Source of the DNA: a virus
Direction: 5' to 3' (one strand)
DNA: 36,001 bases
Virus record (IMG/VR): IMGVR_UViG_3300031603_000013
Span: 1-36,001 of that record
Shown in pieces: positions 8,812 to 8,862 of the stretch; positions within the stretch are counted from its first letter, which is position 1, and every line of letters begins with the position of its first letter. A program made the translations under genes and the position numbers. A model generated the notes under the pieces. It did no database searches, was not told the DNA's origin, and was given only the letters and a program-made list of their open reading frames with translations.

Positions 8812-8840
8812 GTGTAAAATTCATCCTGGTGTGGTATAAT
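8812..8840 (+). promoter_or_regulatory. class-1 promoter P1: -35-like GTGTAA, 17-bp spacer, extended -10 TGGTATAAT
   Basis: the same architecture recurs 8 times; here followed by ATGTAACCGGGGG and SD. Confidence 0.6.
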
Positions 8841-8862
8841 TCTTATGTAACCGGGGGTGATC

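Follow-up and report, generated by a model that had tools for sequence, protein, structure and literature searches.

A conserved GTGTAA box ahead of extended -10 promoters in an uncultured marine jumbo phage, and its possible reading by a two-polypeptide sigma factor

The stretch of DNA analyzed here, 36,001 nucleotides (nt) covering positions 1 to 36,001 of IMG/VR record IMGVR_UViG_3300031603_000013 and called the window below, comes from an uncultured marine jumbo phage and carries eight near-identical copies of the pattern GTGTAA-N14-TG(G/T)TATAAT, numbered P1 to P8 (Table 1). Judged by their sequence, these sites are real extended -10 promoters of the sigma70 family, suited to bacterial core RNA polymerase with a sigma70-family factor, and they evidently head non-structural transcription units of the early or middle type. 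We tentatively propose that a natural sigma factor made of two polypeptides uses GTGTAA, or GTGnAA in the wider sense, as its -35 element, that the promoters are bootstrapped by host sigma70 as well, and that the system is borne by a large clade of uncultured marine phages; this reading is possible, although rather short of probable.

A sequence-only reading of the window had listed eight near-identical sigma70-type promoters with an unusual -35 hexamer and had proposed a genome-wide motif scan. The scan returned exactly those eight sites in the window, each an exact match at the listed coordinate and all on the + strand, where shuffled sequences are expected to give 0.20 matches even when two mismatches are allowed. 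TATAAT is exact in 8/8 sites and is preceded by TG at -15/-14 in 8/8. The distance from GTGTAA to TATAAT is exactly 17 bp in all eight, as it is in the 69 GTGTAA-bearing sites of the wider clade. GTGTAA thus falls at -35 to -30 and TGG at -15 to -13, and the exactly 17-bp spacer of the sequence-only reading holds when measured to TATAAT. A literal pattern with 17 bp ahead of TGG has no match in the window because that spacer ends at TATAAT, not at TGG. The two boxes are nearly exclusive partners, with eight of the nine GTGTAA and eight of the nine TGnTATAAT occurrences on the + strand pairing up, and a whole-window search of the - strand found no TGnTATAAT. Five of the eight sites have the flanking C of CGTGTAAGA, and five have the GA that follows.

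All eight sites lie upstream of and co-oriented with a gene, either in a short gap or over the last bases of the upstream open reading frame (ORF), and a start codon follows each at 20–90 nt. At four of them (P4, P5, P6 and P7) the TAA of GTGTAA doubles as the stop codon of the upstream ORF. Geometry, perfect extended -10 element, intergenic position and gene co-orientation together support the assignment to sigma70-type promoters. The -35 hexamer is indeed not TTGACA, with which GTGTAA agrees at 3/6 positions (T-34, G-33 and A-30 are kept). A TTGACA/TATAAT scanner run on the window performed at chance level (24 found vs 24.2 expected; 24 vs 23.7) and reported none of the eight sites. Two further sites lie within 8.6 kb upstream of the window on the longer, marine-type metagenome contig that contains it, ENA ERZ27316312 (53.5 kb) or Logan SRR8862232.

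Relatives of the window were found by a pattern scan of IMG/VR, and a stricter scan, with N4-ATGT added to the pattern, returned 34 stretches as its full list (the IMG/VR stretches compared carry L-numbers below). Nucleotide identity between the window and its relatives is ~80%; the most useful of these is the 318-kb genome IMGVR_UViG_3300022902_000004, the closest complete relative, in which the stricter scan places at least 22 sites, on a single strand, at 10–50, 93–106 and 241–307 kb. For the clade as a whole we searched about 290 kb of sequence with TGnTATAAT alone. Exact GTGTAA occupies -35 to -30 in 69 of the 77 distinct sites recovered. Also conserved are C or T at -36, R-A at -29/-28, Y-R at -17/-16, A-T-G-T from -2 to +2 and G from +8 to +10, and G at -13 is kept in 58 of the 69. 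Upstream of -36 no position in the clade sites reaches 0.4 bits, and no conserved UP element is seen. No close cultured phage was found when 12 kb of the window was compared with the phage collection by megablast (no match), and blastn with a 58-nt consensus promoter gave chance matches only.

Orthologous promoters retain the boxes at 6/6 and 9/9 positions, while the spacer matches at only 5–13 of 14. The P2 orthologues in L013 and L330 keep both boxes in full with 11/14 spacer positions, the P3 orthologue in L078 keeps the boxes and has a different leader, and the P7 orthologue in L012 has identical boxes, 8/14 spacer positions and a leader matching at 29/30. By this comparison purifying selection on both boxes is strong, whereas the spacers and flanks drift. 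In three cases the homology breaks inside the promoter. P4 and its counterpart in L328 are 100% identical from the -10 element onward, with a spacer at 5/14 and an unrelated upstream flank (27/90). The P8 orthologue in L012 has identical boxes, an unrelated upstream flank (29/90) and stem changes that preserve base pairing. Between P1 and L013, homology stops inside the -10 element itself. Because the boxes are kept and homology breaks inside the promoter, these promoters appear to be both selected and junctions of mosaic exchange. L013 carries a different segment of ~700 bp in place of the HNH gene that follows P1, with a fresh GTGTAA promoter immediately before the ligase. In relatives, such promoters are followed by genes for a DNA ligase, homing endonucleases, a MoxR/VWA pair, Rnl1-like ligases and a KaiC-like ATPase, with no structural gene among them.

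The probable transcription start is the G of ATGT, which lies 7 nt past the -10 element. We set +1 at this G, seventh after TATAAT, on the strength of the T(-1)G(+1) conserved among the clade sites, and all leader results are conditional on this predicted start. For 68 distinct predicted transcripts, the mean folding energy of the first 32 nt is -8.1 kcal/mol, compared with -4.2 kcal/mol for random 32-mers from the same sequences; a value of -8 kcal/mol or better is reached by 59% of these leaders and by 11% of the background (Mann-Whitney p = 5e-15). The stems are of several designs (CCGGG/CCCGG, GUUGCC/GGYAAC or AAGGC.../...GCCUU) and their spacing is variable. Predicted transcripts usually begin (A)UGU, and the conservation of (A)UGUU(G/C)CCGGG and of a GAUGG loop motif exceeds the needs of pairing. 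No Rfam family matched the leaders at the gathering threshold. Within the window P2, P3, P4, P7 and P8 have hairpin leaders, P5 and P6 have plain short leaders, and the P1 leader is short.

The sequence-only reading had described a conserved transcribed leader that could be an operator or an RNA hairpin. The conservation is real and a hairpin fits, with folding far stabler than background; a DNA operator fits less well, since the stems are differently built and variably spaced. Its details needed correction. Five sites had been said to continue N4-ATGT(T/A)NCCGGG, and the full motif is present at four (8812, 24181, 26141 and 34974), 19353 having ATGTAACC only. The 29 nt attributed to both P7 and P8 match at 26 of 29 core bases, and the identical run is 18 nt including the preceding CTC. 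The 5' stem-loops would most likely protect mRNA 5' ends. Stem-loops at the 5' terminus that stabilize mRNA are known, for example in the ompA leader. The present leaders resemble these in that about 60% of transcripts have a GC-rich hairpin within a few nucleotides of their predicted 5' end; they differ in the conservation beyond pairing and in loops that often contain GAUGG, and their 5' ends are predicted only.

A second, weaker class of sites matches GTGAAC-N14-nnnTAnnnT. Six are found in the window, all on the + strand (Table 1), and the clade sequence holds nine distinct sense-strand sites and none antisense. Most lack a properly placed TG and their -10 hexamers are imperfect, so these sites must depend on the -35 box, which shares GTG.A with GTGTAA.

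The same design recurs in other marine viral contigs as dense arrays, in which GTG(C/T/A)A(A/G/T) at -35 is followed by -N14-TGGTATAAT, with one promoter per small gene. There are 17 sites within 12 kb of L002, ~17 in L057 and L118 combined and 14 in L054, the last mostly GTGAAA with a few GTGAAT; L112 and L225 also bear arrays. Array leaders are short, e.g. ACCAACCAAGGAG, and some of them have a GGGGAUGG(N)CCC hairpin that is also found in the window's clade. At least one array group (L004/L039) is on a contig that also bears a sigma gene. Conversely, GTG(T/C/A)AA-N14-TGnTATAAT occurs within 500 bp before the sigma gene in about 30–38 of 80 sigma-bearing contigs, whose GC content ranges from 31% to 58%.

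These sigma genes, located by a homology search of the fetched ORFs with an approximate sequence of the C-terminal part of E. coli RpoD as the query, lie just downstream of single matches to the promoter pattern. The family was confirmed on at least 98 IMG/VR contigs, and we examined 80 loci (L248–L327). In the window's own clade an RpoD-like sigma is encoded on the 60-kb contig L342, which has identical promoters, and an identical one in the 318-kb genome at about 59–60 kb. In L345, L342 and the 80 loci, Pfam models for regions 1.2, 2 and 3 are present and the region 4 model is covered at positions 1–18 of 50 only; all of these sigmas stop a few residues after ...LRMRFG. The residues for -10 recognition are conserved (the FSTY..WW.QQA block), and H455 and E458 of region 3.0 are replaced. 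Compared with cultured phages the sigma has no close relative, the best identity being 40–44%. Lacking region 4.2, such a sigma would be expected to work only at extended -10 promoters or with a partner protein.

A candidate partner is encoded directly 3' of the sigma gene in 80/80 loci by an ORF of ~92 amino acids with the consensus MSMPKG..GYATV..YREIAEKMT..G.KMNHSTARNVFLRAM.KIA...DPRFQ. This ORF has its own Shine-Dalgarno sequence in 74/75 loci and a variable overlap with the sigma stop codon, indicating that the small protein is separately translated, and independent gene callers give the same annotation. A programmed frameshift fusing the two ORFs was considered and rejected, as both the overlap distance and the frame vary and a Shine-Dalgarno-like sequence is so regularly present. 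Homologues of the small protein number about 2,000; every one of them is a standalone protein, and none contains a Pfam domain. Its AlphaFold2 model (mean predicted local distance difference test score 80.7) has a beta-hairpin followed by four helices, and searches of Pfam, PDB sequences and the PDB by Foldseek gave no match. When the protein was compared by hhalign with a small, approximate region 4 alignment, the sole alignment fell on the 4.2 helix-turn-helix at 5.7% probability, placing YREIAE...STARNVFLRAMKKIA on TLEEVG...TRERIRQIEAKALRKL. It is thus suggestive that region 4.2 may be supplied in trans by the small protein. In the 318-kb phage the sigma operon comprises two small ORFs, genes for a FEN-like nuclease and a GroEL-like chaperonin, a 78-amino-acid ORF, the sigma gene and that of the putative helix-turn-helix protein. 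Across the family, which has no cultured representative, the sigma gene is usually preceded by a GroEL-like Cpn60 gene. Literature searches on the motif and on split or truncated phage sigma factors returned nothing specific.

As recounted in PMC2613000, which cites Kumar 1993 on this point, TGn/-10 promoters work without a -35 hexamer or sigma region 4.2. The host sigma70 holoenzyme should therefore be able to fire the TGnTATAAT class unaided, which would remove the bootstrapping objection to a phage reader. We think it a serious possibility, if somewhat short of an even one, that the extended -10 element allows the host sigma to fire these promoters while GTGTAA is read by a two-part phage sigma. 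Unmodified host sigma70 holoenzyme would fire the perfect TGnTATAAT without -35 contact and would thereby launch the infection program, including the operon for the phage's own sigma. GTGTAA would be the -35 element of that sigma. Its first piece would be the RpoD-like protein with regions 1.2, 2 and 3 and the first third of region 4; its second, the putative helix-turn-helix protein of ~92 amino acids, would stand in for region 4.2 and bring a different recognition helix. The weaker GTGAAC-N14-TAnnnT sites would have this reader too, and the promoters would act in addition as recombination junctions between gene modules. A phage reader seems favored by the invariance of GTGTAA despite its mere 3/6 agreement with TTGACA, by the recurrence of the box across sigma-bearing phages of very different GC content, by the apparent need of the GTGAAC class for the same reader and by the conserved G at -13.

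Several observations weigh against a phage reader. In the window and among the relatives' genes looked at, the promoter class serves non-structural genes only, and the stricter scan found no site at 106–241 kb of the 318-kb genome. The sigma genes lie outside the window, about 60 kb away in the relative, and in the 318-kb phage their operon itself opens with a GTGTAA-N14-TGTTATAAT promoter. The fourth base of the box does not evidently covary with the presumed recognition helix of the small protein. A class that serves early-type genes and the sigma operon but leaves the probable late region bare is what one would expect if the host reads these promoters early and the phage sigma acts on another, late class. 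The restriction to auxiliary genes (including the arrays of small genes), the promoter on the sigma operon and the empty interval all favor host-only early promoters of the T4-early or SPO1-early type. Here the host primary sigma would read the extended -10 element together with GTGTAA, either because the host lineage has an unusual -35 preference or because GTGTAA is a phage-specific near-miss of the -35 box, and the phage sigma pair would act later. The perfect match of the extended -10 to the primary-sigma consensus and the three retained TTGACA positions fit this as well, and T4-type phages have dozens of early promoters with a -35 consensus of their own, GTTTAC at -36 to -31 (PMC1524935). 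However, an invariant 3/6 match in 69 sites is unlike the behavior of a sigma70 -35 box, GTGnAA in sigma-bearing phages spanning 31%–58% GC argues against one odd host lineage, and the weak GTGAAC class requires a true -35 reader with the same GTG.A preference. Bacterial genomes also give chance-level matches only, a scan of 185,579 genomes for the motif having returned seven unrelated singletons, about the chance expectation. We consider a host-only reader only slightly less likely than the two-part phage sigma.

It is less likely, and in our view improbable, that a phage protein other than the sigma partner binds GTGTAA as an activator and recruits host sigma70, perhaps after AsiA-like remodeling of region 4. 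In favor of this, the box is invariant, non-canonical and peculiar to this phage group, many small ORFs without assigned function offer candidates, and TGn/-10 promoters resist AsiA-type anti-sigma factors aimed at region 4 (PMC2613000). The sequence-only reading had compared the box with that of the MotA-dependent middle promoters of T4. The two share a general plan, in which a phage-specified upstream box stands for the host -35 and the -10 stays sigma70-like, but the comparison fails on the defining particulars of sequence, position and spacing: the MotA box, (a/t)(a/t)(a/t)TGCTTtA, is centered at -30, 11–13 bp from the -10 element (PMC1524935), whereas GTGTAA is placed just where a sigma -35 element would be, with 17 bp between it and its -10. 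Additionally, roughly 20 window proteins scanned gave no MotA or AsiA family match, and a sigma without region 4.2 beside a putative helix-turn-helix protein is a more specific candidate. A reading of the motif as mainly a repeated recombination or mobile cassette, with an incidental promoter look, is very improbable. Homology does often start or stop inside the promoter (P4/L328, P8/L012 and P1/L013) and two sites adjoin homing endonuclease genes, but every copy is on the coding strand immediately 5' of genes, and the conserved parts are exactly the two sigma-contact boxes, with a freely varying spacer. Arbiol and colleagues are said to have described in 2010 that T4-type early promoters, too, are mosaic junctions.

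The position at module junctions is one of several likenesses to T4-type early promoters, which number about 40–60 per genome in T4, RB69, RB49, 44RR and Aeh1. In both cases many near-identical strong sigma70-type promoters stand before small early or novel ORFs and tRNA genes, and a phage-specific consensus extends past the host hexamers, being rich in GT around the extended -10 and departing from TTGACA in the -35 region (PMC1524935). The T4 consensus is GTTTAC at -36 to -31 (TTTACA being 5/6 of the host -35) with an A-rich UP element, in contrast to GTGTAA at -35 to -30 and 3/6 here; our sites have neither GTTTAC or GTTGAC at -36 to -31 nor an A-rich UP element at -40 to -44 (PMC1524935). 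Unlike T4 early promoters, they also conserve the ATGT start region and a 5' stem-loop. The perfect TGnTATAAT match is shared with classical extended -10 promoters such as galP1 and lambda Pre*, which lack a conserved -35, whereas here a hexamer is invariant at -35 and G is conserved at -13. Thus, the strictly conserved box at the -35 position, the start region and the 5' stem-loop are new relative to T4-early and extended -10 promoters.

Sigma factors made of two polypeptides are known from B. subtilis (sigmaO-RsoA, also YvrI/YvrHa) and T4 (gp55 with gp33). In the proposed scheme, as in these, -10 reading and -35 or flap binding would reside on two separately encoded, co-expressed proteins. 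The large piece here differs in being closely related to RpoD; it spans regions 1.2 to 4.1 and ends at the 4.1/4.2 boundary. The small piece differs in belonging to an unannotated ~92-amino-acid family with no Pfam domain.

Table 1. Promoters, candidate promoters, genes and RNAs in the window, and the sigma locus of the 318-kb relative
Feature	Coordinates	Strand	Sequence or evidence	Context
P1	8812..8840	+	GTGTAA-aattcatcctggtg-TGGTATAAT, 14-nt spacer; leader ATGTAACCGGGGG	predicted start G 8847; upstream ORF ends 8810; leader directly joins HNH endonuclease gene (8857 or about 8863 to 9345), then RNA ligase and GMP reductase-like genes
P2	19353..19381	+	leader hairpin 19398-19415	predicted start 19388; gene downstream 19442-19924
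P3	24181..24209	+	5' stem-loop CCGGG-ACUAC-CCCGG at about 24220-24234	predicted start 24216; 11 nt past endolysin gene end (24170); gene downstream 24272-24580
P4	26141..26169	+	stem-loop about 26180-26193	predicted start 26176; gene downstream 26205-26987
P5	31934..31962	+	TGTTATAAT variant; short, unstructured leader	gene downstream 31985-32194
P6	32627..32655	+	short leader with Shine-Dalgarno	predicted start 32662; metallophosphatase gene downstream 32676-33422
P7	34260..34288	+	leader CUGUAAGGCAcgcUGCCUU, a hairpin	predicted start 34295
P8	34974..35002	+	5' stem-loop GUUGCCGG-guaug-CUGGUGGC, from +1 onward	predicted start 35009; gene downstream 35048-35347
Candidate second-class promoter	1337..1365	+	GTGAAC-N14-TGTTAATAT	upstream of 868-aa vault-protein-like gene
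Candidate second-class promoter	4112..4140	+	GTGAAC-N14-GTGTACTAT	between terminator-like hairpin 4047-4078 and tRNA-Glu
Candidate second-class promoter	14187..14215	+	GTGAAC-N14-TCATAGAAT	upstream of gene at 14222; kept in L013 at 7548
Candidate second-class promoter	17383..17411	+	GTGAAC-N14-TGTTATAGT	upstream of Ro/TROVE gene
Candidate second-class promoter	21207..21235	+	GTGAAC-N14-GATTATACT	upstream of tmRNA gene; kept in L013 at 12923
Candidate second-class promoter	26984..27012	+	GTGAAC-N14-GAATAGGAT	upstream of gene at 27018; kept in L328 at 2786
Vault-like protein (868 aa)	1412-4018		major-vault-protein shoulder/SPFH domains	
RNA ligase	9354-10247			HNH endonuclease gene lies between it and P1
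NMNAT-Nudix and NAMPT	11424-13801			NAD+ salvage pair
Adenylosuccinate synthetase homologue, short (336 aa)	16350-17360		matches PHROG family annotated PurZ-type (2-aminoadenine Z-genome phages)	
Ro60/TROVE-VWA protein	17755-19095			
Transfer-messenger RNA (tmRNA), one-piece ordinary type	21286-21645		Rfam RF00023, 113.8 bits; tag peptide ANDNSEYSYAQAA	
NUMOD3 homing endonuclease	27933-28820			overlaps start of CCA-adding enzyme gene
CCA-adding enzyme	28807-30534			
Four tRNAs: Gly-GCC, Arg-TCG, Thr-GGT, Glu-TTC	391-544, 868-941, 4324-4400			some simple ORF calls overlap
Sigma locus of the 318-kb genome	L345:3953-4943 and L347:9953-10943			
aa, amino acids.

All genes of the window but one are on the + strand, and their content is that of an auxiliary, non-structural part of a large phage (Table 1). 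The sole convincing - strand gene, at 20555-21178, encodes 207 amino acids; a - strand TATAAT near 21233 lacks a GTGTAA box. RNA ligase, the Ro60/TROVE-VWA protein and the CCA-adding enzyme form an RNA-repair or quality-control set beside the tmRNA and tRNAs, and a GH25 endolysin and a GMP-reductase-like enzyme are also encoded. At 11284-11311, TGTACA-N16-TATAAT lies inside the 143-bp gap ahead of the NMNAT-Nudix gene and may be an extra promoter without TG or GTG.A. After the vault-like gene, at 4047-4078, stands the window's strongest intrinsic-terminator-like hairpin (14 bp stem). Homologues of the vault-like protein in the phage collection come only from huge phages of 462 kb and 735 kb. 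An ORF of the same length (868 amino acids) in L147 proved unrelated, and the huge phages LR756500 and LR756501 were rejected as relatives, sharing one protein, being AT-rich and lacking the motif. NAMPT is 50–55% identical to the NAMPTs of assorted jumbo phages. The adenylosuccinate synthetase homologue has best tblastn matches that are only 35–39% identical, and no DatZ- or MazZ-type Pfam match was found among the adjoining ORFs; modified adenine, if present in the phage DNA, would bear on the TATAAT reading. Clues to the host were sought in several places: the NAMPT and vault-like proteins led to assorted jumbo phages only, the cluster names and encoding contigs to Tara marine metagenomes only, and the tmRNA is of the ordinary one-piece type.

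The analysis yields a precise promoter grammar, GTGnAA-N14-TGGTATAAT with an ATGT start and then a 5' stem-loop, for marine phages of a large uncultured group, jumbo phages among them. Read conservatively, the motif still lets early transcription units be annotated from metagenomic phage sequence and marks junctions of module exchange. If the box is indeed read by the truncated sigma together with the small protein, the pair would be a natural split sigma factor with altered -35 specificity; this would bear on the evolution of sigma region 4 and on phage takeover of host RNA polymerase, and could serve engineering as an orthogonal promoter/sigma pair.

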